From an uncultured Chloroflexia bacterium (lineage in GTDB: Bacteria > Chloroflexota > Limnocylindria > Limnocylindrales > CSP1-4), in the NCBI GenBank assembly GCA_963833225.1, contig CAWHXD010000018.1, positions 1-15,456 on the forward strand: 15,456 bases of DNA, read 5' to 3'. The stretch's first letter is position 1, and every line of letters begins with the position of its first letter. A program made the position numbers and the translations under genes. The notes beneath the pieces were generated by a model that did not search any database, was not told the origin of the DNA, and was given only the letters and a program-made list of their open reading frames with translations. Below, in pieces: positions 1-13,922 of this stretch.

Positions 1-511
1 CTACGTGGTCGCCTACCCGGTCAACACGGGTGAGATCGCGGCGTACAACACCCAACTCGCGGCCGACGGGATCACCGACCCCGTGACCGGCAATGCGTCG
101 ATCTCCACGCTCGACAACAAAGGCGGCCTGATGACCGCGTGGTGCATCCAGTGCCACACGCGGTACAACGGCAACTGGTCGGTACAGGGAGACCCGGGGA
201 GCCAAAGCCTCGGAGTGGCTTCGCTCTACGACAACTCCGGTGGCGACTCCCGGTTCATGTACAAGCATGGAACCACCCGCATCGGCTGCGAGCAGTGCCA
301 TGTGTCGCACGGCTCGAATGCAGCGATGACCGGCTCCAACAGCTTCGCCTACGTAGACCCGAACGGCGACGTTCCGCCGACGGTCGGCGTCTCCGGCGAC
401 AGCCGCCTGCTCAAGGCGGACAACCGCGGTACCTGCCAGTTGTGCCATGACCCGACGGGCACGATCACGGCCGGCACGTACATCGGCCCGCTGCCGACCC
501 CGGGCAACTAG
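1..511 (+). CDS. Multiheme c-type cytochrome, C-terminal part (5'-truncated by window edge); OmcS/CwcA-like motif pattern
   Basis: Open frame from position 2 (YVVAYPVN...) to TAG at 509-511. Three CxxCH motifs: WCIQCH, CEQCHVSHGS, CQLCH. Followed by a GC hairpin. Confidence 0.9.
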   Translation, partial: YVVAYPVNTGEIAAYNTQLAADGITDPVTGNASISTLDNKGGLMTAWCIQCHTRYNGNWSVQGDPGSQSLGVASLYDNSGGDSRFMYKHGTTRIGCEQCHVSHGSNAAMTGSNSFAYVDPNGDVPPTVGVSGDSRLLKADNRGTCQLCHDPTGTITAGTYIGPLPTPGN

Positions 512-533
512 CCCTCATCCATCAGCAATCGCT

Positions 534-567
534 TCCCGGCGGCCACGGTTCACCCGGGCCGCCGGGG
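534..567 (+). terminator. GC-rich stem-loop after the first cytochrome gene (terminator or mRNA-stabilising hairpin)
   Basis: CCCGGCGGCC (535-544) and its exact reverse complement GGCCGCCGGG (557-566), about 23 nt after the stop. No U-tract. Confidence 0.55.
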
Positions 568-704
568 CACCCACTCAGCCAGGCAGGACCCTGCTTCATG
601 CGCCGTTCTCGTCCCCTCCGACGGTCGCTGCTCACGCCGGTGGTCTCGGCCCCGGCGATGCCGCCTGCCACGCGGCGTGTGAATACGCTCATCGGAGCAC
701 GTCC

Positions 705-2556
705 GTGACGTCCCGTCGCCGCTTCACCCTTCGCCTCAGCACGGCCCTGGCCGCCGGCCTGCTGGTTGTCAGCGCGATGACGACCACCACACCGATGGTC
801 GCGTCCGTTCGTGCCAGTGAATTCGACCCCGGATCCATCGGCATCGGCGGCCCCGACAGCGAGTCCCAAACCCACCGTGGCGCCCACCTCGACGCCTTCG
901 CCGGACCCGGCGCCGACCCCGTCACCAGATCCGGCACCGTCGGCTTCGCCCACCGTCACCGCGTCGCCCACCGCGTCCCCCACGCCTGCCCCCGCGCCAT
1001 CCACGACCGCGTCCCCGTCAGCGGCTCCGAGCGTGTCTCCGTCGCCCAGCGCGTCGCTCGGACCATCGCCCGAGCCATCGCCGTCGCCCAGCGCGTCGCT
1101 CGGACCATCGCCCGAGCCATCGCCATCGAGCGAACCGTCGGCGTCGCCGCCGGTGGAGCCATCGCCCTCCGCGTCATCTTCGGCGGACCCATCGATGGAG
1201 CCCTCCCCCTCGATCACACCGGAGCCGACGCCCTCAACCGGGATCGAGGTCGTCCATACGTGGGTCGACACCACGGACGCGACGGGCACGGTGGTGCAGA
1301 GCGGCGCGACCGACGCCTCGCTGAGCGCGATGGAGCAATTCGTCGTGTACGAGCTGCGCTTCGAGGTCCTCAACTCCGGGGACACGGAGGTCCAGCTCGA
1401 CCCGACGCTCGAAGCCGGAACCGGCTCCAGCCCCGACGCGTGGGCCGTGGTCCCGACCGTGGATCCGGTACCGGGCCAGCCGTTCTACGCCGCCTCCGAT
1501 GACGGCCGGACGTTCAAGGTCCGAGCCGCGCCGATCGATCCCTCGGCCTTCCGGTCACCGGCGCCCCCGACACCCGACGCGCAGGTCGACGCGCAGGCCG
1601 CTGCGCAGCCCGTTGCGGGGATCACAAGCGCCGGCATGAACCCCGCACCGACCATCACACTGCCCGCCCACACGTACACCGAGATCGAGTTCGCGTTCCG
1701 CGCGACGATCAGCGCAGCGTGGACGCAGACGTACTCGCTCCGCCTCCAGCCCGCGGACGAGACCGTTGCGGCCGGCACGCCGCTGACGGTGACGATGCGT
1801 GCCCGTCCGGCGATCAGGCTGACACTCCCCGCATCGACGACGCGTGACGACCCGACCGGTCTCGCCACCGGGTTCCAGCTGGCGGCCGTCACCGCCCCCT
1901 CGGGCGGGGTGCTGTACCCGCTGTCGGCCACCGTCGACCCCGACTCGCCGCACATCGTCGCCTCGCTCACCTCGGACGGATGCGCCGCCTGCCATGCCGC
2001 CCATACAGGCATCCAGCAGAGCCTGCTCTCGGGTGTCTACCGGCTCGATCCGCTCAAGAGCTGGACGGAGGCGTATGACGGCGCCGACTTCGCGCTGTGC
2101 ATCTCGTGCCACGCCGAAGAGCCGTTCGCGGACCTCAGCGGCAGCCTGAATGCCGGCACGAGCTTCGCGGGCCACGGATACCACATGGGCAACATCGAGG
2201 ACACGGGCACGGGCGGCCTGGACATCACGGTGGCAGGCGACGGCGAAGGCAACGCCCTGTGCGGCGAGTGCCACTACAACCTTCACGGCGTCCCGACTTC
2301 CGAGCGCGGCCTGGTGGTCTTTGCGCCCGACGTCGAGCCCTACAACGACGAGATCAGCTACGACGAGGCGACCGGTTCCTGCACGCTGACGTGCCACGGG
2401 CGCGAGCATGACGGGCTGACCTTCGCGACGCCACCGCCCACGCCGACTCCTACGCCGAAGCCGACGCCGACCCCCACGCCGACCCCGACCCCCACGCCTA
2501 CGCCGACCTCCACCCCCACGCCCACGCCCACGCCCACGCCCACGCCCGGGATCTGA
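705..2556 (+). CDS. Secreted multiheme cytochrome c with Pro/Ser/Thr-rich stalk, beta-rich middle domain and (Pro-Thr)n tail; +1 frameshift at ~820-823
   Basis: GGAG (694-697) precedes GTG 705, encoding signal peptide MTSRRRFTLRLSTALAAGLLVVSAMTTTTPMVASVRA-SE. Removing one base in GAATTCG (819-825) joins it to the 811..2556 frame (STPDPSASAAP...), giving ~616 aa. Heme motifs CAACH, CISCH, CGECH and atypical CTLTCH. Confidence 0.8.
1039..1122 (+). repeat. Perfect 42-bp tandem duplication (2 copies) encoding PSPSASLGPSPEPS in the stalk
   Basis: ccgtcgcccagcgcgtcgctcggaccatcgcccgagccatcg at 1039-1080 and 1081-1122. Confidence 0.95.
2428..2547 (+). repeat. Degenerate 6-bp coding repeat (ACN CCN)n encoding the Pro-Thr tail
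   Basis: Translates as TPPPTPTPTPKPTPTPTPTPTPTPTPTSTPTPTPTPTPTP just before the stop. Confidence 0.9.
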
Positions 2557-2784
2557 CACCGCGTCTGTATCTCCCGATACAGCCCATTCCCGCGGTATCC
2601 ACCCAACAGCCCTGCCGGGTCCCGGCCGAAATGTGCGGCCTGACAGATGGGCTCGAGGCTCGCCACTCCGGACAATGCCCTCAGGTGTCAAGCCGCGGCG
2701 ATCCGCGGCATCAGATGAGGGATCCACGATGAACCGGCTGCCACGGCGCAACTCCCGTTGCGCGCGTCCCGGGGGAGGCCGCGA
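2557..2784 (+). promoter_or_regulatory. Structured intergenic/leader region upstream of the TPR-ccdA-resB-ccsA-resA operon
   Basis: Inverted repeats CTGTATC/GATACAG (2565-2582), GCCGCGG/CCGCGGC (2692-2709) inside CCCTCA/TGAGGG (2678-2721), and GCGCAAC/GTTGCGC (2746-2763). RBS GGAGG at 2774-2778. Confidence 0.45.
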
Positions 2785-4086
2785 GTGAATGCGCGCGTGC
2801 TCCCCGCCACGCGACACGCCGCCCTGGAGAACGAGCTGCTCTCGCAGCTCGGTCTGCCACCAAGCGCGTCGCCCGAAGACGTCGATGCACTCCATGAAGC
2901 CGCGAGCGAGTACCTCGCGGCTGCGCCCTCGAGCCTCCGCGGATGGGCCCACGCCCAGGCCTCGGCGCTCGATTCGGCGTACCTCAAGCTAACCGACCCG
3001 GTCGGTCTCGAGGGCTCGGCCCTCAGGAGCCCGACGAGGCCGCCGACGGTCGTACCCGGCGGGCCGGCGACACCTCCGGCCCGCCGGGATTCCGTCCCGG
3101 CCACCACGATCCCCGCGGTCGCCGACACGCTCGACGATGACGTCGTGGACGACGACCTGATCGACGACGACACGTACGACGACGAGGAGATCGGCACCGA
3201 CTTCGACTCGCTGTACGCCGCGGTCACGCCCAGCGCGCACGCGGACATGGCCCCCGACGCGAAGCCCAGGCGCCGCGCTCGTGCGGCGGCGCCCGCCCCA
3301 TCGAAGGGGGTTCGGTCCCGCCGGCGCGCGGACGTGACGGCATCGGAACCCGCGTCCGGTGGGATCTGGAAGAAGATCGCGCTCGGGGGTGCGGCGGTGA
3401 TCGCCGTGTTCGCGATCGGCTTCGGGGCCAACGCGATCGTCAACGGCAACAACGCCGAGCCGGCCCCGACCCCCGATGTGGCACAGGCCAGCCCGAGCGC
3501 GCCGGCGGTCGACCAGGCCCAGGTCGCCCAACTCATGACGAAGTACGCAGCGGACCCGAACGACACCACCACGCTGCTCGGCCTCGCCGACGCGTTCTAT
3601 GCCGGCCAGGACTACTCGAGCGCGGGCGAGTGGCTGGACAAGCTGCTCGCGATCGATCCCAAGAACGTCCAGGCGCTGCTGGCGAAAGGCGCGGTCAGCT
3701 TCAACCTCGGCGACCTTCCGACGGCCGAATCCACCTGGAAGCAGGTGGCGGACATCGCGCCCGACAACGTCGAGGTCCACTACGACCTGGGCTTCCTGTA
3801 CCTCAACCAGACGACGCCCGATTGGGCGGGTGTCCAGAGCGAATGGACGAAGGTCATCCAGCTCGATCCGGGCTCGGATCTGGCACAGACGGTCCAGGCG
3901 CATCTCGATGCCCTGGTCGCCGCCTCGATGATCCCGGCCTCACCCGGTGCCCCGGCCTCACCCGCGGCCAATGGTTCCCCCGTTGCGTCCCCGGCTGCCT
4001 CTGAGACCCCGGCCCCGCCGGCCGCATCCCCGGCCGCGTCCCAGCCGGCCGCCTCTCCGGCGCCGACCGGGAGCGCCACGCCATGA
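2785..4086 (+). CDS. Membrane-anchored tetratricopeptide-repeat protein (CcmI/NrfG-like apocytochrome chaperone candidate) with N-terminal degenerate J-like domain
   Basis: GGAGG then GTG 2785. Acidic and basic linker, one TM helix (IALGGAAVIAVFAIGFGANAIV), TPR signatures (LADAFYAGQDYSSAGEWLDKLLAIDPKNVQALLAKG; VHYDLGFLY; VIQLDPGS). Stop overlaps the ccdA start (ATGA 4083-4086). Confidence 0.8.
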   Translation: MNARVLPATRHAALENELLSQLGLPPSASPEDVDALHEAASEYLAAAPSSLRGWAHAQASALDSAYLKLTDPVGLEGSALRSPTRPPTVVPGGPATPPARRDSVPATTIPAVADTLDDDVVDDDLIDDDTYDDEEIGTDFDSLYAAVTPSAHADMAPDAKPRRRARAAAPAPSKGVRSRRRADVTASEPASGGIWKKIALGGAAVIAVFAIGFGANAIVNGNNAEPAPTPDVAQASPSAPAVDQAQVAQLMTKYAADPNDTTTLLGLADAFYAGQDYSSAGEWLDKLLAIDPKNVQALLAKGAVSFNLGDLPTAESTWKQVADIAPDNVEVHYDLGFLYLNQTTPDWAGVQSEWTKVIQLDPGSDLAQTVQAHLDALVAASMIPASPGAPASPAANGSPVASPAASETPAPPAASPAASQPAASPAPTGSATP

Positions 4087-4865
4087 GCGATCTCGGCAGC
4101 GCGCTCGGCCTCGGCATCGCCTTCACCGGCGGCGTCGTGTCGTTCGCGTCCCCGTGCTGCCTGCCGCTGGTACCGGCCTACCTCAGCTACATGGTCGGTG
4201 CGACCGGCGATGGAGCGTCCGGCCGCAGGACCGCGTTCCTGCACGGGCTGGCGTTCACGATCGGGTTCTCGCTGGTGTTCGTGGCCTTCTGGGCCTCGAT
4301 CGGCGCCATCGGCTACGTGCTGGCCGACAACAAGCGTCTGCTGACGATGGCCGGCGGCGCGCTGCTCGTGTTCCTCGGGCTCCAGGTCGCGGGCGTGATC
4401 AACGTCCGGGCCCTGTGGCGCGACACCCGGGCCATGCCCGCCACGGGCGGAACGCTCGTGGCGGCCGGCGGACCGGGTATGGGCCTCCGGGGCGTGGGTG
4501 GCGTGCTCGGCGGCACCGGCGGCTCGCCGTCCTACAACCGGTCGTTCGTGTTCGGTCTCCTGTTCGCGGCCGGGTGGAGCCCGTGCATCGGGCCCATCCT
4601 GGGCGGGATCCTGGGGCTCGCGACGGCAACCTCGAGCGTGCTCCAGGGAACGATGCTGCTGATCGCGTACGCCGCCGGCCTGGCCGTCCCGTTCCTGGCC
4701 GTCGCGCTCGGAGCGTCCTGGGTCTCGCGCCGCCTGACCTGGATCGGCCGCCACCACCACATCGTCTCACTCGCCACCGGCGCACTGCTCGCGACGGTCG
4801 GGGTGCTGATGCTCACCAACACGCTCAGCCGGCTGGCGACCATCGCGTCGCCGTTCGGCCTGTAG
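4083..4865 (+). CDS. ccdA: Cytochrome c biogenesis protein CcdA (DsbD-like transmembrane thiol-disulfide transporter)
   Basis: Motifs SFASPCCLPLVPAYL and GWSPCIGPILG, about 6 TM helices, System II context. Confidence 0.95.
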   Translation: MSDLGSALGLGIAFTGGVVSFASPCCLPLVPAYLSYMVGATGDGASGRRTAFLHGLAFTIGFSLVFVAFWASIGAIGYVLADNKRLLTMAGGALLVFLGLQVAGVINVRALWRDTRAMPATGGTLVAAGGPGMGLRGVGGVLGGTGGSPSYNRSFVFGLLFAAGWSPCIGPILGGILGLATATSSVLQGTMLLIAYAAGLAVPFLAVALGASWVSRRLTWIGRHHHIVSLATGALLATVGVLMLTNTLSRLATIASPFGL

Positions 4866-4877
4866 GAGGTCGTTCGG

Positions 4878-6344
4878 ATGACCCACGAAGGCTCCCGGCC
4901 GCTGCCCCCGGCGGCGGTCCCCGCCGTGCGGGAAGCCGCGAGGACCGGCGTGGTTGATCGCATCGACCGCGTGCTCGAAGGCCTCTGGCACCTCCTGTCG
5001 TCGATGCGCGTGGCGATCGTGCTGATGCTGGCCATCGCCGCGCTCGGCGTGCTGGGCGCGGTGATCATCCAGGCGCCGTCGGGTGTCCTGAACGACCCGT
5101 CGGCGAAGGCCGACTGGCTGTCCCAGGTCCGTCCGAAGTACGGCGGCTGGACATCGATCATGGACTTCTTCCAGTTGTTCCAGATCTTCAACTCCGTGCT
5201 GTTCCGGGTCCTCGTCGCCGGGCTGACGATCAGCCTCATCGCCTGCTCGATCCACCGGACACCGGGTATCTGGCAAACGATCACCAGGCCCCGCCTTGAC
5301 GTCGGACCCGCGTTCTTCGAGCACGCACCCCAGCACGAAGCGGTCGTGGTCCGGCATTCACCGGCCGAGACGCTCGGCATTGTGAATGGGGTCCTGCAGG
5401 GGCGGCACTACCGGACTCTGGCCCACGACGACGGCGTGATCCATGTCTACGGAGACCGCTTCCGTTGGGTCCAGTTCTCCGGCGTGGTCGCCCACCTGTC
5501 GCTGGTCGTGATCCTGGCCGGCGCCATCATCGGGGCGATGTTCGGCTACCGCGACAGCGGCTTCACGATCGCCGAGGGCAGCACGCTGCCGGTGGCGGCC
5601 GAGGCAGGGCTGTCGCTCCAGCTGATCGACTTCACAGACACCTACTACACCGACAGTGGCATGCCCCAGGACTACGCCAGCCAGGTCGTCCTGTACAAGG
5701 ACGGCCAGGAGGTCGCCCGCCACACCATCCGGGTCAACGACCCGCTGCGCTACGGCGACACGACCTTCTACCAGGCTTTCTTCGGATCGGCGGCGGTCAT
5801 GACCGTCAAGGACTCGACCGGCAAGACCCTGGTGTCGGAAGGCGTGCCGCTGGCCTGGACCACCACGGCCGACAACCGGCCGATCGGCTCGTTCACCATC
5901 CCAGGCACGAACTATGTGGGCTGGGTCGTGGGGACGCTCGGCGCCAACGACGCCACCATCCAGCCCGGCCAGATGCAGCTCGAGCTGTACACCGCGGACA
6001 GCGGCCGGGAGGTGGCCCAGCAGGTGCTTGACCAGGGCACGCCAGCGACGATGGAGGGCCTGACGGTCAGCTTCGACCGCGAGAGCCAGTTCACCGGCCT
6101 GAGTGTCTCACGCGATCCCGGCGTGACCCTCGTCTGGCTGGGAGCATTCCTCCTGGTCGCCGGGTTCACCCTCCGCTTCCTGCTTCCGCACAAGCGGATC
6201 TGGGCGCGCATCTCGCCCCGGGCCAACGGTGGCGCGGTGCTGGCAGTGGCGAGCCTCGGCAGCCGCGACGCTGCGCTGGGAACCGAATTCCAAGGTCTTG
6301 TGAGCGACATCCGCGGGGCGTTGCATACGCCGGCGCGGTCCTGA
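4878..6344 (+). CDS. resB: Cytochrome c biogenesis protein ResB (CcsB/Ccs1)
   Basis: LSSMRVAIVLML N-terminus, third TM with conserved His (VAHLSLVVIL), large extracytoplasmic domain with IRVNDPLRY, C-terminal RDPG+TM. RBS GGAGG upstream. Confidence 0.93.
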   Translation: MTHEGSRPLPPAAVPAVREAARTGVVDRIDRVLEGLWHLLSSMRVAIVLMLAIAALGVLGAVIIQAPSGVLNDPSAKADWLSQVRPKYGGWTSIMDFFQLFQIFNSVLFRVLVAGLTISLIACSIHRTPGIWQTITRPRLDVGPAFFEHAPQHEAVVVRHSPAETLGIVNGVLQGRHYRTLAHDDGVIHVYGDRFRWVQFSGVVAHLSLVVILAGAIIGAMFGYRDSGFTIAEGSTLPVAAEAGLSLQLIDFTDTYYTDSGMPQDYASQVVLYKDGQEVARHTIRVNDPLRYGDTTFYQAFFGSAAVMTVKDSTGKTLVSEGVPLAWTTTADNRPIGSFTIPGTNYVGWVVGTLGANDATIQPGQMQLELYTADSGREVAQQVLDQGTPATMEGLTVSFDRESQFTGLSVSRDPGVTLVWLGAFLLVAGFTLRFLLPHKRIWARISPRANGGAVLAVASLGSRDAALGTEFQGLVSDIRGALHTPARS

Positions 6345-6356
6345 GGGAGATCCGAC

Positions 6357-7244
6357 ATGGATAAGATGGCCGGCTACGCGTTCGTGGCGGCGATGTTCAG
6401 CACCGGTCTCGCGATCTTCGTCTACCTGCTGTACGCAATCTCCGGTCTGCGGGCCGCCCGGATGCAGACCGCCGGCGCCCCGGGATCCACCGGGGCGATG
6501 GGCTTCGTGTCCGGGCCCCGAACCGCCTCGATGGGGCGCTACGCGACGATCCTCGGCTGGCTGGCCGTGGTCGCGCTCCTCATGAGCCTCGTGTTCCGCG
6601 CCATCGCCACGGGCCATGGCCCGTTCGCGAACATGTACGAGTTCTCGGTCGCGTTCGCGTTCGGGATCCTGGCGGCCTACATGTGGTTCGAGCGCCGGTA
6701 CCACCAGCGGATCCTGGCGCTGGTCGCCCTGCCCGTCGCGCTCGCCATGATGCTCTACGCATGGACGATCCAGGGGCCCATCGAGCCGCTCGTCCCGGCG
6801 CTTCAGAACAACCTGCTGCTCACCGTCCATGTCGCCGTCGCGATCGTCGCCTACGGCAGCTTCTCGATCGCGTTCGCGGCCGCCGTCCTGTACCTGATCC
6901 AGCCCGAGGGCGGCCGCTGGGGCCTGCCCAAGCCGCAGGTGCTGGACGAGATCGGCTACCGTGCCGTGGTCGTCGGCTTCCCCTTCCTGAGCCTCACGAT
7001 CATCCTCGGCGCGGTGTGGGCCGACGTCGCCTGGGGCAGCTACTGGAGCTGGGACCCCAAGGAGACGGCGTCGCTGGTGACCTGGCTGATCTACGGTGCG
7101 TACCTCCACGCCCGCGTCATGCGCGGCTGGCGCGGCAACCGGGCGGCCTGGCTCCTGATGCTCGGCTTCGCGGCCACGCTCTTCACCTATTTCTTCATCA
7201 ACCTGTTCGCGCCCGGCCTCCACAGCTACGCGGGCCTGAGCTGA
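6357..7244 (+). CDS. ccsA: Cytochrome c synthase / heme exporter CcsA (ResC; named ccsB in some annotation schemes)
   Basis: WWD domain WADVAWGSYWSWDPKET, HGPFANMYE, LTVHV, AYLHAR and C-terminal GLHSYA histidines. Confidence 0.96.
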   Translation: MDKMAGYAFVAAMFSTGLAIFVYLLYAISGLRAARMQTAGAPGSTGAMGFVSGPRTASMGRYATILGWLAVVALLMSLVFRAIATGHGPFANMYEFSVAFAFGILAAYMWFERRYHQRILALVALPVALAMMLYAWTIQGPIEPLVPALQNNLLLTVHVAVAIVAYGSFSIAFAAAVLYLIQPEGGRWGLPKPQVLDEIGYRAVVVGFPFLSLTIILGAVWADVAWGSYWSWDPKETASLVTWLIYGAYLHARVMRGWRGNRAAWLLMLGFAATLFTYFFINLFAPGLHSYAGLS

Positions 7245-7273: not shown

Positions 7274-7873
7274 ATGAACGCTGCGGGCGTCGCCGCGAGG
7301 CCGTCCCGCCGCGGGGCCGGCCCCCTCCAGACGATCGTCGTCATCGCCGTCACGGCCGTCCTCATCGGGGCCGTGACCTGGCTCGTGGCGGGTCCGGGCA
7401 CCGACGACGGGGTGACGTCGATCGACCTCGGCGCCAACGCTGCCGGCGCGGCGCCGGTGGTCGGGGCGATCCCCCCGGACTTCACGGCCATGACGTGGGA
7501 CGGCCAGACCGTCTCACTCTCCGACTACGCCGGCAAGCCGATCTGGCTGACGTTCGGCGCCTCGTGGTGCCCTGATTGCCGGACGGAAGCTCCGGACGTC
7601 GAGGCCACCTACCAGGCATACAAGGATCAGGGGCTGGTCATCCTCGCCGTGTTCATCGATGAGAGCGGCGCGGACATCGGCACCTACGCACAGCGTGCGG
7701 GTCTCACCTTCCCGATCGCGGTCGACCAGAACGAGACGATCGCCGGGACCTATCGCACCCTCGGCATCCCGACCCACTTCTTCATCGGCACCGACGGACG
7801 CATCAAGGACGTGCGCATCGGTGCCCTGCCCAAGACCGAGATGGATCGCGCCGTCTCGGAGATCGTCAACTAG
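7274..7873 (+). CDS. resA: Membrane-anchored TlpA/ResA-family thiol-disulfide oxidoreductase
   Basis: GAAGGGAG then ATG 7274. N-terminal TM, PDFT, ASWCPDCRTEAP active site, GIPTHFFIGTDG cis-Pro loop. Confidence 0.9.
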   Translation: MNAAGVAARPSRRGAGPLQTIVVIAVTAVLIGAVTWLVAGPGTDDGVTSIDLGANAAGAAPVVGAIPPDFTAMTWDGQTVSLSDYAGKPIWLTFGASWCPDCRTEAPDVEATYQAYKDQGLVILAVFIDESGADIGTYAQRAGLTFPIAVDQNETIAGTYRTLGIPTHFFIGTDGRIKDVRIGALPKTEMDRAVSEIVN

Positions 7874-7883
7874 GCACGCACGA

Positions 7884-9611
7884 GTGACCGATCCCACCGT
7901 GCCCGGCGATTCGGTCCCCGCGGTGGCAGGGCCCGATTCCGGAGGGGCAGCCGACGACGCACCCCGAGCGGCGGTGGCCAGCACCAATTCCGAGGCCGCC
8001 GACGACACCCCGCCCGCGGCGGAAGCCGGCAGCGCCCCGCCTGCCGAGCCCGCACGACCCCGCCACCCCTTCTACCTGCGCGGTCGCCGGCCACGGCTTC
8101 CCTCCTCGCGGAGCGGCCTGTTCGCCCTGCTCCTCGTGCTCAGCGGTCTCGGTGCCGTCGCGACCTTCTCGGCCGTGTCGCTGCTCAACTGGACCGAGAC
8201 GGCGGACTTCTGCGGTCGCTGCCACACCATGGCCCCCGAGCTCGCGGCCTACGAGGCCGGCCCGCACCGCGATGTCGCCTGCGCCGAGTGTCATGTCGAA
8301 CCGGGCATCGCGGGCTGGATCAAGGCCAAGCTCAACGGCACGCGGCAGCTGATCGAGGTGGTCCTGGGCACCTTCCCGGAGCCGATCCCGCCACCCGACC
8401 ACTCCCAGCTTCCGGGTGCGGCGGTCACGTGCCAGAAGTGCCATGCGGTCGAGTCCCACCCGGTCACCACGCTCAAGACGGCCACGATGTACGCAGAGGA
8501 CGAGACCAACACCCGGCAGTTCGTGGGGCTCCTGATCCGCCCCAGCGGTGGCGACCCGTTCGACGTCACCAAGAGCGTCCACTGGCACGTCCTGCGCACC
8601 GTCAACTACTGGTCGCCGTACGTCAACGGCGCGCAGATCGATCTCGTCGAAGAGACCGAGGACGACGGCACGGTGAAGCAGTTCATCAGCCAGGCGGAGA
8701 TCACCGACACGTCCAACGTCGCGCCGGACGTGGCCGCCATCCAGGCAACGCAGACGTCGACCACGATGTCGTGCTACGACTGCCACAACCGTGTCGGCCA
8801 TCCGATCCCGAATCCGCGTGCCGGACTCGATCATGACCTCCTGGTCAACGCCATCGACCCCACCCTCCCGTACATCAAGCGCGAAGGGATGCGGATCCTG
8901 TGGGCCTCGTACCCGGACGATGCCGCGGCCGATGCCGCGGCCGACGAGCTGGCCTCCTTCTACGCCATGAACTACCCCGACGTCGCCCAGGCCAAGTCCC
9001 AGCAGATCGGCCAGGCGATCAGCGCGATCAAGGTGCTGTACCGGTTGACGGCCACACCCGAGATGAAGGTCACCGCGAAGACCTACCCCGACAACCTCGG
9101 CCACCTCGACTTCCCCGGCTGCTTCCGGTGCCACGACGGCGGCCACTTCCTGGTCGAGAACGGCGTCGTGACCAACAAGACCATCCCGTCCACCTGCGAC
9201 ACCTGCCACACCTTCCCCCAGATCGGGCCCGCGGTCGCCAGCCTGCCACTGGGTGCGCCACCATCGACGCACGACGACGAGCTGTGGGTGTTCAACCACA
9301 AGAATGTCGCGACGAGCATCGACCCGGGGGGCACCTCGTGCGGCGAGTGCCACGCTCGTGACTACTGCGTCAACTGCCACTCCACCGGGGCCGTGACCGT
9401 CGACCACGACGAGATGGCCACCAACCACGCCAAGGTCATCCGCGCGCAGGGCAACACTGCCTGTGCCTACTGCCACCAGCCGGTGTTCTGCGCGCGCTGC
9501 CACAACGAGCCGGTGCTGCCGGTGACGACGCCCTTCTCGGAGGGGCCAACCACCCAGAACCTGCCCGACCAGCCGTCCGGCGTCAGCTGGCCGCTGACGC
9601 CGAGAGGCTGA
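7884..9611 (+). CDS. NapC/NirT-family membrane-anchored decaheme cytochrome c (ImcH-like quinol dehydrogenase)
   Basis: Likely GTG start at 7884, just after the resA stop. One TM then ETADFCGRCHTM (CxxCHxM, NapC/NrfH heme 1). Ten CxxCH: CGRCH, CAECH, CQKCH, CYDCH, CFRCH, CDTCH, CGECH, CVNCH, CAYCH, CARCH. Confidence 0.9.
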   Translation: MTDPTVPGDSVPAVAGPDSGGAADDAPRAAVASTNSEAADDTPPAAEAGSAPPAEPARPRHPFYLRGRRPRLPSSRSGLFALLLVLSGLGAVATFSAVSLLNWTETADFCGRCHTMAPELAAYEAGPHRDVACAECHVEPGIAGWIKAKLNGTRQLIEVVLGTFPEPIPPPDHSQLPGAAVTCQKCHAVESHPVTTLKTATMYAEDETNTRQFVGLLIRPSGGDPFDVTKSVHWHVLRTVNYWSPYVNGAQIDLVEETEDDGTVKQFISQAEITDTSNVAPDVAAIQATQTSTTMSCYDCHNRVGHPIPNPRAGLDHDLLVNAIDPTLPYIKREGMRILWASYPDDAAADAAADELASFYAMNYPDVAQAKSQQIGQAISAIKVLYRLTATPEMKVTAKTYPDNLGHLDFPGCFRCHDGGHFLVENGVVTNKTIPSTCDTCHTFPQIGPAVASLPLGAPPSTHDDELWVFNHKNVATSIDPGGTSCGECHARDYCVNCHSTGAVTVDHDEMATNHAKVIRAQGNTACAYCHQPVFCARCHNEPVLPVTTPFSEGPTTQNLPDQPSGVSWPLTPRG

Positions 9612-9699: not shown

Positions 9700-9889
9700 T
9701 CGGGCCGGCGGGCTGATCACCCGCTGATCATCCGGGCAAACGCCCCGTACCCGCCGAACGATCGCTCCGCGCGCAAATGTGCCGTTTCTATATCCATCCG
9801 CACATTCCGTCGCCACGGTCGTCGCTCGCACAATGTCGGTCCATCAGGAGGGCTGCGATGGGCCATTGGGCCTGTCGCCGGAGGCTGCG
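9700..9889 (+). promoter_or_regulatory. Probable promoter/operator region of the Rieske-cytb-decaheme operon
   Basis: GCTGATCA direct repeat (9712-9719, 9723-9730), inverted repeat AATGTGC-N17-GCACATT (9776-9806) around an AT-rich core, and -10-like CACAAT at 9829-9834. Confidence 0.4.
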
Positions 9890-10426
9890 ATGGACCACGA
9901 CCCCGCGACCGCGCCCGAGCCAGGGCAGTTGCCGGCGCCGGACGCCGTCACGCCGCTCGGGTCTCCGTCCGGCTCAGCGACTCCCGGTCCCCAAGGGATC
10001 CAGTCCCGGCGACGGTTCCTCGCCTGGCTCGGCGGGTTCACCGTGTTCTCGACGGTCGCGATGATCACGACGCCGATCCTCGGGTTCCTCGTCCCGCCCA
10101 GGACGAGCGGCACGTCCGGTGGCGGGAAGGTCCTGGTCGCCACGACGGCCGACATCCCTCCCGGCGCCGGCAAGGTCGTCGCCCTGGGCAGCAAGCCGGC
10201 GATCGTCGTCAGCACCGAGCAGGGCCTCCACGCATTCTCGGCGATCTGCACCCACCTCGGGTGCGTCGTGGCCTGGAACGACCTGGCCGGCGTCATCCAG
10301 TGCCCGTGCCACGATGGCCGCTTCAACCCCGTCTCAGGCACGGTCGTGTCCGGCCCGCCCCCGGCACCGCTGCCCGCGCTCAAGGTCTCCGTGGAAGGCG
10401 ACCAGATCTTTCTGAGCGAGGCCTGA
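9890..10426 (+). CDS. qcrA: Rieske [2Fe-2S] subunit of a menaquinol:cytochrome c reductase (QcrA/PetC-like)
   Basis: GGAGG (9880-9884) then ATG 9890. Tat-type anchor SRRRFL+TM, box I CTHLGC, box II CPCHDG, GPPPAPL. Confidence 0.92.
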   Translation: MDHDPATAPEPGQLPAPDAVTPLGSPSGSATPGPQGIQSRRRFLAWLGGFTVFSTVAMITTPILGFLVPPRTSGTSGGGKVLVATTADIPPGAGKVVALGSKPAIVVSTEQGLHAFSAICTHLGCVVAWNDLAGVIQCPCHDGRFNPVSGTVVSGPPPAPLPALKVSVEGDQIFLSEA

Positions 10427-10427
10427 G

Positions 10428-11504
10428 ATGGCGGCCGGCGGCACCACCGATCGCGCCGTGGGATCCGGCAGCTGGATCGAGCAACGGACCGGCGTCGGAC
10501 CGGTGATGGCTGCGCTGCTTCACGTCCGGATCCCGATGTCGGCCCGGACGATGTACTTCGGCGGGATCGCCCTGTTCCTGTTCGGCATCCAGGTCGTCAC
10601 GGGCACGTTGCTCGCGCTGTACTACAAGCCCACCCCCGAGGCCGCCTACGAGAGCGTCCAGTTCGTGACCAGCGACGTCAGCTTCGGGTGGCTGATCCGG
10701 AGCATGCACCACTGGGCTGCGAACCTGATGATCCTGTTCGTTGCCCTGCATCTCCTGCGGGTCTTCTTCCAGGCGGCGTACAAGTACCCGCGGGAGCTGA
10801 CCTGGGTCATCGGCGGCGGCCTGCTCCTGGTGACCCTCGGCTTCGGGTTCACCGGATACCTCCTGCCTTGGGACCAGCGGGCGTACTGGGCCACCGTCGT
10901 GGGTACCGACATCGCCGGATCCGTTCCCGTGGTCGGCGACTCGCTCCTCCAGCTGCTGCGCGGCGGTGCGGACGTCACTGGTGACACCATGAGCCGGTTC
11001 TTCGGGATCCACGTGCTGGTGCTGCCGCTCGCCCTGGCCGGTCTCATGGCGATCCACCTGGTGCTGGTCCACCAGCTCGGCCTGGCCAACCCCAAGAAGC
11101 CCGAGCCGCGAGTCCGCCCGGCTGCGGTCGACCGGGAGCCGCTCCGGCCGTTCTTCCCGAACTACCTCCTTGACGAGGTGGTCGCTTGGTACGTCATCCT
11201 CGCGATCCTCGTGGTCCTCGCCTCGGTCTTCCCGGCCGGTTTGGAGGGGCAGGCGAACCCGCTCGAGACACCCGCGCACATCAAGCCCGAGTGGTACTAC
11301 CTCGCGGTCTACCAGCTGCTCAAGATCATCCCGCGCACGATCGCCGTGATGGCCCCGATCATCGGCATCGGCCTGCTCATCGCGTGGCCCTTCCTGGACC
11401 GCAACCCCGAGGTGCTGGCACGACGGCGCAAGCTGGCCGTCGCGGGGGCCACGCTGGTGGTGGTGGGGGTGATCGTCCTGACGGTGTGGGGTTATGTCAG
11501 CTGA
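10428..11504 (+). CDS. qcrB: Cytochrome b subunit (fused b6 + subunit IV type) of the Rieske/cytb complex
   Basis: RSMHHWAANLMILFVALH, GYLLPWDQRAYWATVVG, FFGIH...MAIH, PFFPNY, and Qo motif KPEWY. Confidence 0.95.
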   Translation: MAAGGTTDRAVGSGSWIEQRTGVGPVMAALLHVRIPMSARTMYFGGIALFLFGIQVVTGTLLALYYKPTPEAAYESVQFVTSDVSFGWLIRSMHHWAANLMILFVALHLLRVFFQAAYKYPRELTWVIGGGLLLVTLGFGFTGYLLPWDQRAYWATVVGTDIAGSVPVVGDSLLQLLRGGADVTGDTMSRFFGIHVLVLPLALAGLMAIHLVLVHQLGLANPKKPEPRVRPAAVDREPLRPFFPNYLLDEVVAWYVILAILVVLASVFPAGLEGQANPLETPAHIKPEWYYLAVYQLLKIIPRTIAVMAPIIGIGLLIAWPFLDRNPEVLARRRKLAVAGATLVVVGVIVLTVWGYVS

Positions 11505-13056
11505 GATCCGCCGGCCGATGTTCGGTCGCCGCTCCCCGGCTGCGCGGGGCGTGAGGGCCGCCCTGACCCTCGGCGTGCTCGGCCTCGCGTGGTTCGCGCT
11601 CGCGTTCACGGCGGCCGCCCAGGACCCGAGTGGCTCGCCAGCCGCATCCAGCAGCACCGAGGCCACGCCTTCGCCGAAGGCGACCCCAGCACCGTCCGAT
11701 TTCGACTGGCTGTTCGCGACGCCGCTCCCGACCGCGACCGTCCCGCTCGCATCGGCGCCACCGGTCCCTGCACCGCTCACGCACGCCCCGGCCGATGGCG
11801 CCAACGGATGCTACGACTGCCACAGCGTCGTGAACGACAAGCAGGCGGCGATCGCCGCCGATTGGCAGGACAGCGCCCATGGCCAGGCCGGCGTCACGTG
11901 CGCCGACTGCCATGGGGGAGACCCGCGTTCCGACCAGATCACGGTGGCCATGGACCCGTCGAACGGGTTCGTCGGCGCACCCGACCGCCTGGGGAGCGTC
12001 GGGCTGTGTGGCAGCTGTCACGCGGACGTGAACCGGATGAAGGCCTCCGGTCTGCCGACCGACCAGTACGCGAAATACTGGTCGAGCGTGCACGGACAGC
12101 AGCTGTTGACCGCAGATGACAACCGGGTGGCGATCTGCACGGATTGCCATGGATCTCACACCGTCAAGAAGGTCTCGGACCCGAGCTCCCCGGTGTTCAT
12201 CCTCAACGTCCCGGAGCTGTGCGCCGGCTGCCATGCCGACGCCGATCGGATGGCACCTTACGGCATCCCGACGGACCAGTACGCCATCTACTCCAAGAGC
12301 GTCCACGGCGTCGCGCTGCTCGACAACAAGGACGTCCGGGCACCGAGCTGCGCGTCCTGCCATGGTTCGCATGACGCGAAGCCACCCACGTCCGCAACGG
12401 TGGTCGGCGTGTGCGGCAAGTGCCACACGGCAACCGAGGATCTCTACCAGCAGAGCCGACACTCCGAGCTCCAGGCGGCAGCGCCCCAGTGCTGGACCTG
12501 CCACGGCACCCATGACGTCACGCAGCCGGGCTCCTACATGTTCTTCCACCCGACTCCGCCCGAGTACACGTGCGACACGTGTCACGACCTGCAGACACAC
12601 ACGCTCCGCCTCGAGCTCAGCCGGTTCACGAACGAGGCCGATCGGCGATGTGACACGTGCCATCACCCCGATTCGCAGATCTACGCGCAGATCGACGGGA
12701 TCAGCAACGCCATCACATCGGCAGAGGACGCCTACACCCAAGCCCAGGACACGATCCAGCGCGCGGCGGGGCTGGGCATGATCACGTCCGACGCGGAGGT
12801 GAAGCTGACCGACGCGAAGACGAGCCTCATCCAGGCACAGGCCGCCGTTCACACGACGAAGCTGAGCAAGATCGCGGAGCTGTCGACCGATGCCACGACG
12901 AAGGCCCAGGCGGCCGAGGCGATCGCGACCGGCAAGATCGACGAAAGCGTGTTCCGGCGTGAGGCGATGGTCGTCGTCCTCGCGTTCATCGCGTTCAACG
13001 CGCTGTTCCTGTACGTCCTGAAGCGCCGGCTGGACAGGGACCTCGAGAAGGGCTGA
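11494..13056 (+). CDS. Decaheme cytochrome c with signal peptide and C-terminal membrane anchor (third subunit of the Rieske/cytb complex)
   Basis: Overlaps the cytb stop. Signal peptide ending AAA-QD, P/S/T linker, ten CxxCH (CYDCH, CADCH, CGSCH, CTDCH, CAGCH, CASCH, CGKCH, CWTCH, CDTCH, CDTCH), Ala-rich helical region, C-terminal TM + KRR. Alternative start ATG 11518. Confidence 0.92.
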   Translation: MSAEIRRPMFGRRSPAARGVRAALTLGVLGLAWFALAFTAAAQDPSGSPAASSSTEATPSPKATPAPSDFDWLFATPLPTATVPLASAPPVPAPLTHAPADGANGCYDCHSVVNDKQAAIAADWQDSAHGQAGVTCADCHGGDPRSDQITVAMDPSNGFVGAPDRLGSVGLCGSCHADVNRMKASGLPTDQYAKYWSSVHGQQLLTADDNRVAICTDCHGSHTVKKVSDPSSPVFILNVPELCAGCHADADRMAPYGIPTDQYAIYSKSVHGVALLDNKDVRAPSCASCHGSHDAKPPTSATVVGVCGKCHTATEDLYQQSRHSELQAAAPQCWTCHGTHDVTQPGSYMFFHPTPPEYTCDTCHDLQTHTLRLELSRFTNEADRRCDTCHHPDSQIYAQIDGISNAITSAEDAYTQAQDTIQRAAGLGMITSDAEVKLTDAKTSLIQAQAAVHTTKLSKIAELSTDATTKAQAAEAIATGKIDESVFRREAMVVVLAFIAFNALFLYVLKRRLDRDLEKG

Positions 13057-13073
13057 CGCGGGGGCGCTCAGCC
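13051..13073. terminator. Hairpin spanning the convergent stops of the decaheme gene and fdhD
   Basis: GGCTGA-CGC-gggg-GCG-c-TCAGCC. Confidence 0.35.
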
Positions 13074-13922
13074 GAGCTCGACCGTCACTCGGTCCGGGCG
13101 GGCGTAGACGTTGAACCCGTCGCCTCGCAGGAACCCGATCAGGGTGAGGCCGAGCCGCATGGCGGCCTCGACCGCGAGATCGCTGGGTGCGGAGACGGCG
13201 GCCAGGATCGGAACGCCGGCCACGGCCGCCTTCTGGACGAGCTCGAAGCTCGCCCGACCCGAGACGAGCACGATCCGCTCGTGAAGCGGCAGCGCGGCGG
13301 CCAGCACCTGGCTCCCGATCAGCTTGTCCAGGGCGTTGTGACGGCCAACATCCTCGCGCAGCGCCAGCAGCGTGCCGCGCGGGTCGAACAGCCCGGCCGC
13401 ATGGAGCCCGCCGGTGGCCGCGAACACCGCCTGGGCATCGCGCAGGGAGCCCGGCAGGCCGAGCAGGACGTCCGGCGCCACGAAGGGTCCGTCCGGGATC
13501 GGGTCGCAGCGCACCTCGACCTCGTCGATCGATGCCTTGCCGCAGATCCCGCACGAGGCCGTCGCCACGAAATGGCGCTCCGCGACGCGGGTTGCGTCGA
13601 ACGGGCGGTCGAGGTGGACGGTCACCTGGTCGTCGGGCTGCGCGGCATTGCCGGGCGGGCTGAACGTGATGTCCGAGATCCCCGTGGCGTCGTCGAGCAG
13701 ACCCTCGGTGCGCAGGAAGCCCACCGCGAGCTCCGCCTCGTGACCCGGCGTGCGCATCGTGACGGCGACGTCCACCGGTGCCTGGCCAGGCCCACGGGCG
13801 CGGATGGCCATCGGCTCCTCGCCCGCCAGCCGATCGTCGCGCCCCTCCACGACGCCCGCGCGATATGCAGTCACCCGGGTGAGAGCGGCCTGGCGGGGCG
13901 TCGGGTCGGGCGGGGCAGTCAT
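13068..13922 (-). CDS. fdhD: Formate dehydrogenase accessory sulfurtransferase FdhD
   Basis: EEP, TMRTPG, ELAVGFLRTEG, SCGICGK, TGGLHAA, REDVGRHNALDKLIG, SGRASFELVQKA, SAPSDLA motifs. Confidence 0.96.
   Translation of the reverse strand: MTAPPDPTPRQAALTRVTAYRAGVVEGRDDRLAGEEPMAIRARGPGQAPVDVAVTMRTPGHEAELAVGFLRTEGLLDDATGISDITFSPPGNAAQPDDQVTVHLDRPFDATRVAERHFVATASCGICGKASIDEVEVRCDPIPDGPFVAPDVLLGLPGSLRDAQAVFAATGGLHAAGLFDPRGTLLALREDVGRHNALDKLIGSQVLAAALPLHERIVLVSGRASFELVQKAAVAGVPILAAVSAPSDLAVEAAMRLGLTLIGFLRGDGFNVYARPDRVTVELG

Follow-up and report, generated by a model that had tools for sequence, protein, structure and literature searches.

A probable distant relative of the filament cytochrome OmcS, encoded in a conserved multiheme cytochrome cluster of Limnocylindria

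The stretch of DNA analysed here (hereafter the window, 15,456 bases) is the entire contig C18 of an uncultured, soil-type Chloroflexota bacterium of the Limnocylindria, whose assembly amounts to 3.89 Mb in 20 contigs with about 70% G+C, and it opens with the 3' end of a gene for a cytochrome with six hemes (the hexaheme). This protein is fairly probably a Sec-exported, unanchored cytochrome carrying six bis-histidine (bis-His) hemes, which as a distant relative of OmcS from Geobacter sulfurreducens (6EF8/6NEF) would relay electrons outside the membrane, its gene lying in a conserved cluster. Both proteins are secreted, are about 400 residues long and contain six CxxCH motifs for which all-His ligation is expected. 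In addition, their profiles match collinearly over hemes 1–5, and OmcS is the best structural match of the modelled hexaheme.

Frame +2 is open across window positions 2–508 and encodes 169 residues up to the TAG stop at 509–511. Because the window spans the whole contig, the gene is truncated at the contig start, and its 5' part was looked for at the other contig ends of the assembly, none of which holds an open multiheme frame. The preliminary description of this DNA, made from the letters alone, had read the fragment as the end of a cytochrome with an OmcS-type signature of three hemes, and the strings on which it relied sit where it had placed them, namely GLMTAWCIQCH at 125–157, MYKHG at 257–271, IGCEQCHVSHGSN at 281–319 and NRGTCQLCHD at 422–451. 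The features of the fragment, numbered by residue according to the full-length protein P0002, are as follows.

2–511, forward strand: 3' end of the hexaheme cytochrome gene (last 169 codons and stop), equal to residues 294–462 of the 462-residue P0002
143–157, forward strand: heme 4 motif CIQCH with Trp just before it (WCxxCH); W340, C341, C344 and H345 are invariant in 101 sequences
266–268, forward strand: His of MYKHG (H382), a candidate distal heme ligand, invariant in 101 sequences
287–310 (CxxCH at 287–301), forward strand: heme 5 motif CEQCH with a second His (CHVSH, H396), invariant in 101 sequences
434–448, forward strand: heme 6 motif CQLCH after R-G-T; C438, C441 and H442 are invariant, R435 and G436 at least 90% conserved

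The pattern of three hemes is not a product of chance, since the motifs, W340, H382 and H396 are invariant in 101 homologues, each of which has exactly six CxxCH.

A search for relatives of the fragment yielded 766 proteins at an expectation value (E) ≤ 1e-3 among 2447 candidates. The first one listed, P0002, matches 100% of the fragment at 100% identity, and its gene is complete in locus L011 (6001–7386), a public record from the same species that shares 97.9% identity with the first 2700 bases of the window, with 35 gaps over 2733 columns. P0002 begins with an N-terminal signal peptide ending ...PVFA/DGGPH, followed by CxxCH motifs at residues 49–53, 72–76, 182–186, 341–345, 389–393 and 438–442. 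The protein appears to be released rather than lipid-anchored, because the signal peptide is not followed by a Cys and the sequence shows no further hydrophobic stretch. In the alignment of 101 homologues, the number of CxxCH is exactly six in 101 of 101, the six motifs together with H56, H149, H189, H382 and H396 are invariant, and H31 is conserved in at least 90%. The twelve conserved His available for six hemes fit in number an all-bis-His hexaheme. Pfam and NCBIfam assigned solely Paired_CXXCH_1 (PF09699/TIGR01905) above the cut-off, with 67.3 bits for P0002 against 20.6, and 30.1 bits for the fragment alone.

To place the family among solved structures, three profiles were compared with the chains of the PDB: A1 built from 51 closer sequences, A2 from 101 sequences, and A3 from these plus an actinobacterial branch. 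OmcS (6ef8_A) was matched by A2 at E 1.3e-3 (21.1 bits) and by A3 at E 2.5e-4 (23.4 bits). The ranking of A2 started with 6r2q_A of the Mtr complex (E 1.3e-6), followed by 9yuq_N (8.3e-4), 7tfs_A (1.2e-3) and then 6ef8_A; A3 matched 7tfs_A at E 1.3e-4 and 9yuq_N at E 0.068. The entry 7tfs_A is a 232-residue cytochrome c that we take to be the OmcE filament of G. sulfurreducens. The entry 9yuq_N is the OmcE filament of Desulfuromonas soudanensis (PMC13712944; here and below, statements cited to a paper refer to the excerpts of it that were available). In the alignment of A2 with OmcS, one stretch places profile positions 53–85 on OmcS 8–55 and covers hemes 1–2 including CxGCHxxH, and a second, collinear with it, places positions 179–351 on OmcS 130–344 and covers hemes 3–5. 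HMMER paired heme 4 with WCANCH, heme 5 with NCLSCHRAH and the CxxCHxxH of heme 1 with CEGCHTMH of OmcS, and the residues common to the family and OmcS beyond the heme motifs lie in LxCxSCHxPHG..YR, WCxxCHT and NCxxCHxAH. The strings given in the preliminary description for hemes 4 and 5 of OmcS (GMSEWCANCH, LRHP and VNCLSCHRAHAS) are indeed present in the OmcS chain as printed by HMMER. The three-heme pattern is not a signature specific to OmcS; it is largely that of paired-CXXCH proteins in general, which matches MtrA and OmcE too. OmcS itself comprises residues 26–432 with six motifs (PMC6584659).

An AlphaFold2 model of the hexaheme computed from the 101-row alignment reached a mean predicted local distance difference test value (pLDDT) of 84.9 and a predicted template modelling score (pTM) of 0.84, with low confidence at residues 25–50 and the last few residues. 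An earlier model from 51 sequences was poor (pLDDT 53.9), and its Foldseek search gave no match at E ≤ 1e-3. The model contains no hemes and was made without templates. Considering that the AlphaFold2 weights are older than the release of 6EF8 in April 2019 and that no templates were used, it is unlikely that the resemblance to OmcS was memorised. In a VIA-align search of 48,161 representative chains, OmcS (6ef8_A) was the best match, with Z 7.3, a root-mean-square deviation (rmsd) of 4.4 Å and 26% identity over 201 aligned residues, model residues 48–445 lying on chain residues 7–407. Three chains in all had Z ≥ 2, namely OmcS (7.3), the chain of the Mtr complex (4.8) and an unrelated protein (2.4), which makes for a very low background with this model; the two OmcE entries were not in this group. 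When Foldseek's own candidates were checked again, OmcS alone was retained. A distant homology of the hexaheme with OmcS is thus quite likely, three partly independent methods of sequence and model comparison being in agreement and none of them decisive alone.

The preliminary description had also pointed to a strong hairpin after the stop codon, and this observation was borne out. A stretch of 96 nucleotides folds with −38.1 kcal/mol (z −3.1, with 1 of 200 shuffles as stable), and the structure is retained in 31 of 40 loci.

534–567, forward strand: GC-rich hairpin of 14 pairs with one 1-nucleotide bulge in the 5' arm, 23 nucleotides past the stop; candidate terminator, attenuator or 3'-end-protecting structure

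The comparison drew on the 76 best genomic loci of the family, all from metagenome-assembled genomes, of which 42 were chosen; L059 and L084 were dropped, their frames having ended after 147 and 83 codons, and the 70 nucleotides past the hexaheme stop were folded in the remaining 40. A hairpin of at least 10 pairs starting 5–39 nucleotides past the stop occurs in 31 of them, and in 0 of 40 within the 70 nucleotides before the gene start. Two classes of stem were found at the same place past the stop in window 512–575 and 16 loci (alignment A4), CCCGGCGGCC/GGCCGCCGGG and GGTGGCCGG/CCGGCCACC, which indicates that the structure is kept where the sequence differs. RNAalifold on these 17 loci gave merely 4 consensus pairs, because MAFFT had left the two hairpin classes out of register. 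No T-run follows the hairpin at 534–567, and a consensus terminator scan calls no terminator there. A smaller second hairpin of 6 pairs lies at 581–596, between the main hairpin and the second cytochrome gene of the window. Metatranscriptome contigs match the window without differences, X1 over 1–162 and 133–518 and X2 over 259–523, and the contigs of these two runs from two studies end near the same place (518 and 523) without loose ends, which hints weakly at a transcript that ends close to the hairpin. There is no real cover of window 600–3000, the pieces at about 1751–1784 and 2513–2549 being loose at both ends, and this is not evidence against transcription. The hairpin probably raises the mRNA of the hexaheme over that of the downstream genes.

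Several results weigh against an OmcS relative that relays electrons outside the cell. Among the PDB chains, profile A1 matched none of OmcS, OmcE and OmcZ at E ≤ 10 (nor did the fragment alone or P0001, the second copy in the same genome), the top PDB match of A1, A2 and A3 was the Mtr-complex chain 6r2q_A, and part of the OmcS signal is generic, because this best match runs through the repeated paired-CXXCH motif. The Foldseek check against 350,542 chains, which the preliminary description had suggested, ranked OmcS first but with E 0.15, a template modelling score (TM) of 0.16–0.17 and an rmsd of 18.5 Å. The VIA-align value of 7.3 falls within the Z of 7–8 that is often the best value for models without a clear match, and 201 of the 407 OmcS residues were aligned structurally. 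Moreover, the model carries a β-rich insertion between hemes 2 and 3, with strands between residues 89 and 207, whereas OmcS is described with few secondary-structure elements (PMC6584659). The RNA evidence consists of assembled contigs from two runs, which cannot rank expression and may contain DNA. Overall, with E about 1e-3 to 1e-4, Z 7.3 and roughly half of OmcS in the alignment, the similarity lies at the detection limit, and the distal His of the hexaheme stands 7 residues upstream of the heme 5 motif, while LRHP of OmcS comes directly after heme 4. Of the earlier proposal of an OmcS-like cytochrome outside Geobacterales, the secreted hexaheme of OmcS size with OmcS as its closest solved relative has stood, and each similarity measure has proved marginal alone. 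If the resemblance were convergent or confined to motifs, the protein would be a generic paired-CXXCH cytochrome with a fold unrelated to OmcS, in agreement with the sole assignment to Paired_CXXCH_1 by Pfam and NCBIfam, the Mtr chain as top PDB profile match, the Foldseek TM of 0.16 and the rating of Z 7.3 as middling by VIA-align. This is an unlikely explanation, given that three methods rank OmcS first or within the first four of all solved chains, that the two proteins align collinearly along their whole lengths, that both have six hemes and mature lengths of about 436 and 407 residues, that residues outside CxxCH are common to both, and that no more than 3 of 48,161 chains reach Z 2.

A distant OmcS relative may or may not polymerise. 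As a true filament subunit, the hexaheme would stack head to tail, with H56 (second His of the CxxCHxxH at heme 1) or H31 (close to the mature N-terminus) as the candidate that ligates the heme of the next subunit, and the NHL and TPR proteins of the cluster would aid assembly of a wire running through the wall of a single-membrane cell and past it. No solved structure is closer than OmcS, whose CEGCHTMH aligns to the heme 1 CxxCHxxH with its invariant second His, the hexaheme has no anchor, and the NHL gene stands directly before the hexaheme gene in 70 of 76 loci; the hairpin in 31 of 40 loci and the RNA contigs ending just past the stop are compatible with expression of this gene above that of its neighbours. 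On the other side, the twelve conserved His suit a self-contained monomer equally, and a homologue of a filament-forming protein need not form filaments itself. The inter-subunit heme ligand of OmcS is presumably His16. It has been described that heme 5 of OmcS takes one axial His from the neighbouring subunit (PMC6584659, PMC9473688), and that CwcA of Thermincola, a hexaheme modelled on OmcS, is insoluble and proposed to polymerise in the wall (PMC7911101). A homodimer prediction with two copies of residues 30–442, the 101-row alignment and 4 of 12 hemes scored 0.00 and 0.00 against a mark of 0.42, its controls came out unfolded, and it speaks neither for nor against binding. Taken together, a filament of the hexaheme is conceivable but rather doubtful. 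Alternatively, the protein may be a non-polymerising monomer of the wall zone or 'periplasm-like' space that shuttles between the membrane cytochromes and a surface cytochrome tethered by Pro/Thr-rich (PT) linkers, for which we would put the chances somewhat below even. The locus evidence behind the relay outside the membrane applies here in the same way, the confident model folds compactly without a partner (pTM 0.84), and the long Pro/Thr-rich spacers of the second cytochrome could span the wall alone. What speaks against such a monomer is that, after the Mtr chain, the closest solved profile relatives are filament subunits (OmcS and two OmcE entries), and that a conserved device raising the mRNA of this gene is not obviously needed by a simple shuttle.

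In searches for outer-membrane markers, neither Omp85 (PF01103) nor LpxC (PF03331) was matched in this 86%-complete genome, and the same searches matched 7 and 4 of 14 control genomes, which fits a single-membrane envelope. With such an envelope, a cytochrome that is exported and lacks an anchor would be placed within the wall or outside it, and the hexaheme, as a secreted distant OmcS relative, probably carries electrons outside the cell membrane. In the proposed route, a membrane NapC/NirT-like decaheme cytochrome and the Rieske/cytochrome b modules of the cluster would exchange electrons with the quinone pool. Across the wall zone, the released hexaheme would act as a relay between these modules and the surface cytochrome with an external partner, and the electrons may flow either way. 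This relay might take the form of a head-to-tail polymer like OmcS or of a set of monomers, and the dedicated System II genes of the cluster would attach the heme.

Comparison with known systems gives likenesses and differences alike. OmcS is the subunit of extracellular cytochrome filaments, whereas a filament of the present hexaheme is hypothetical. The NHL-repeat protein GSU2505 adjoins omcS in Geobacter (PMC9070056), so that by neighbourhood an NHL β-propeller gene stands next to the cytochrome gene in both systems. The osc operon around omcS was proposed to serve filament folding, secretion and morphology, and secretion across the outer membrane was attributed to OscE-G (PMC13194489); secretion of this type would not apply in the present host, because no Omp85 or LpxC was found. 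CwcA (Tfer_0075) from Thermincola ferriacetica, compared here by description, is likewise a predicted bis-His hexaheme of a single-membrane bacterium, with 18% identity to OmcS and a proposed role as electron carrier through the Gram-positive wall (PMC7911101). The partners in the Thermincola pathway, ImdcA, PdcA and OcwA, differ from the partner cytochromes at this locus. OmcE (9YUQ, 7TFS) resembles the hexaheme through the paired CxxCHxxH...CxxCH unit, one motif pair of which aligns, but OmcE is a tetraheme of about 220–230 residues and the hexaheme has six hemes in 462 residues. OmcE clusters always hold β-propeller lipoproteins and further multiheme cytochromes beside resB/ccsB (PMC13712944). 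A similar set of NHL-repeat proteins, multiheme cytochromes, CcsA/CcsB and TPR proteins forms the Uet cluster of 'Candidatus Tenderia electrophaga'; that cluster differs from this locus in its Gram-negative host, a β-barrel protein and undecaheme and triheme cytochromes, with no OmcS-like hexaheme in the excerpted description (bioRxiv 10.1101/2022.05.06.490989). The gene would add to the known OmcS/CwcA-like hexaheme cytochromes, its relation to CwcA being one of description only.

In the literature covered, the solved bacterial cytochrome filaments are all from Geobacter and Desulfuromonas, which are two-membrane bacteria. It may tentatively be suggested that the hexaheme is a filament subunit of single-membrane bacteria (Limnocylindria and Actinomycetota), assisted by NHL and TPR proteins and made without outer-membrane secretion, that would connect the quinone pool, across the wall, with minerals, humics or partner cells. 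If the filament reading were true, the hosts of such filaments would be common, largely aerobic soil and freshwater bacteria. An OmcS-type conduit, if it proves to be one, would bring electron transfer over long distances or across the wall to lineages that are abundant in soil and freshwater and do not count as metal respirers. The conserved adjoining NHL propeller would also offer a handle on the assembly of such cytochromes. Because Intrasporangium calvum and Dietzia sp., both genera with cultured members, are among the matches of the family, the question of the hexaheme could be tested at the bench.

The family is large and spans Chloroflexota (Limnocylindria) and Actinomycetota. In a search of 1.84 billion representatives, the profile of 51 sequences matched 2286 clusters (50% identity) at E ≤ 1e-3, 1104 at ≤ 1e-10 and 356 at ≤ 1e-30. 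By their labels, 75 of the 76 loci belong to Chloroflexota, Chloroflexi, Chloroflexia, Limnocylindrales/Limnocylindria or Anaerolineaceae and 1 of 76 to Actinomycetota. A divergent member, P0234, which is 34% identical to P0002, led to relatives in Dietzia sp., Intrasporangium calvum, Kineosporiaceae and 'Actinobacteria bacterium', annotated as 'cytochrome c3 family protein' or 'Doubled CXXCH motif domain-containing protein', and ten distant family members bear solely the annotation 'predicted CXXCH cytochrome family protein'. Within the same genus, 18 of 24 genomes carry the hexaheme, as against 0 of 16 in a sister family whose genomes measure about 1.1 Mb. In the literature searched, no account of an OmcS-like cytochrome from Limnocylindria or other Chloroflexota was found. 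A Coriobacteriales genome has been described as encoding a homologue of OmcS with 28% identity (PMC7399161). Clusters of look-alike sequences also include Bacillota and may give a lead toward relatives of CwcA.

The hexaheme gene is followed by a long series of cytochrome, maturation and electron-transfer genes in the window.

705–2556 (705 to about 820, then 811–2556), forward strand: second cytochrome with signal peptide, Pro/Thr/Ser-rich linkers, β-rich domain, three CxxCH and one CxxxxCH, and PT-rich tail
2758–4086, forward strand: TPR protein with transmembrane segment (Pfam TPR families; 56 of 76 loci)
4083–4865, forward strand: CcdA/DsbD-TM, System II cytochrome c maturation (PF02683)
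4878–6344, forward strand: ResB, System II cytochrome c maturation (PF05140)
6357–7244, forward strand: CcsA, System II cytochrome c maturation (PF01578)
7274–7873, forward strand: membrane-anchored thioredoxin-like protein of the ResA/TlpA type (AhpC-TSA, Redoxin)
7884–9611, forward strand: membrane-anchored NapC/NirT-like cytochrome with 10 CxxCH, a candidate quinol oxidase or reductase (PF03264); start uncertain, longest open reading frame from 7659
9779–10426, forward strand: Rieske protein (Pfam)
10428–11504, forward strand: cytochrome b (Pfam)
11494–13056, forward strand: cytochrome with 10 CxxCH (by motif count)
13068–13922, reverse strand: FdhD/NarQ-family gene on the opposite strand, end of the cluster

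The cytochrome with ten CxxCH at 11494–13056 overlaps the cytochrome b gene by 11 bases and is an unusual multiheme partner for a Rieske/cytochrome b pair. In L011, the genes upstream of the hexaheme encode a GAF histidine kinase, a LuxR-type response regulator, a 142-residue protein, a small Rieske protein, a TPR membrane protein and a 361-residue NHL β-propeller, the last directly 5' of the hexaheme. The conservation of the cluster was followed by tblastn of its proteins against the 76 related loci, with the following counts.

NHL propeller: 70 of 76 loci
TPR membrane protein (upstream): 64 of 76 loci
142-residue protein: 57 of 76 loci
Second TPR protein: 56 of 76 loci
Response regulator: 51 of 76 loci
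CcdA: 50 of 76 loci
Histidine kinase: 47 of 76 loci
ResB: 45 of 76 loci
Small Rieske protein: 44 of 76 loci
CcsA: 15 of 76 loci, a count limited by the 6-kb flank
Second cytochrome, C-terminal part: 5 of 76 loci

Five of the six loci without the NHL gene have less than 1.7 kb of upstream sequence, and the sixth, L071, has 6 kb and none. The small Rieske protein (172–178 residues), encoded three genes upstream of the hexaheme, contains RRR in a twin-arginine-like leader and has no adjacent cytochrome b (L011 3084–3602; L010 12660–13196, reverse strand). In the orthologous locus L008 (4730–7858), the sensor kinase gene is preceded by genes for NuoF-like and molybdopterin Fe4S4-domain proteins of the NAD-linked formate dehydrogenase type.

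The entire cassette is duplicated in the same genome on contig C7 (locus L010 1–13612, reverse strand), where it comprises the Rieske, TPR and NHL genes, the second hexaheme copy P0001, a 755-residue cytochrome with seven CxxCH, CcdA, ResB, CcsA, a thioredoxin-like protein and a NapC-like cytochrome. P0001 is 409 residues long with six CxxCH and is 61% identical over the C-terminal part.

The second cytochrome of the window occupies a variable position, its C-terminal part being matched in 5 of 76 loci. At 705–830, the frame that opens at 705 encodes the signal peptide (VTSRRRFTLRLSTALAAGLLVV...) and the Pro/Thr-rich body is encoded in a different one from 811, whereas the orthologues in L013 and L014 are uninterrupted in one frame (...VASVRASDSTPDPSASAAP...). 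The reading in two frames reflects an error of one base in the assembly or else a genuine break of the frame. Pro/Ser/Thr-rich repeats of this protein lie at 850–1250 and 2440–2556, and their length varies or is misassembled, because the near-identical L011 differs there by gaps.

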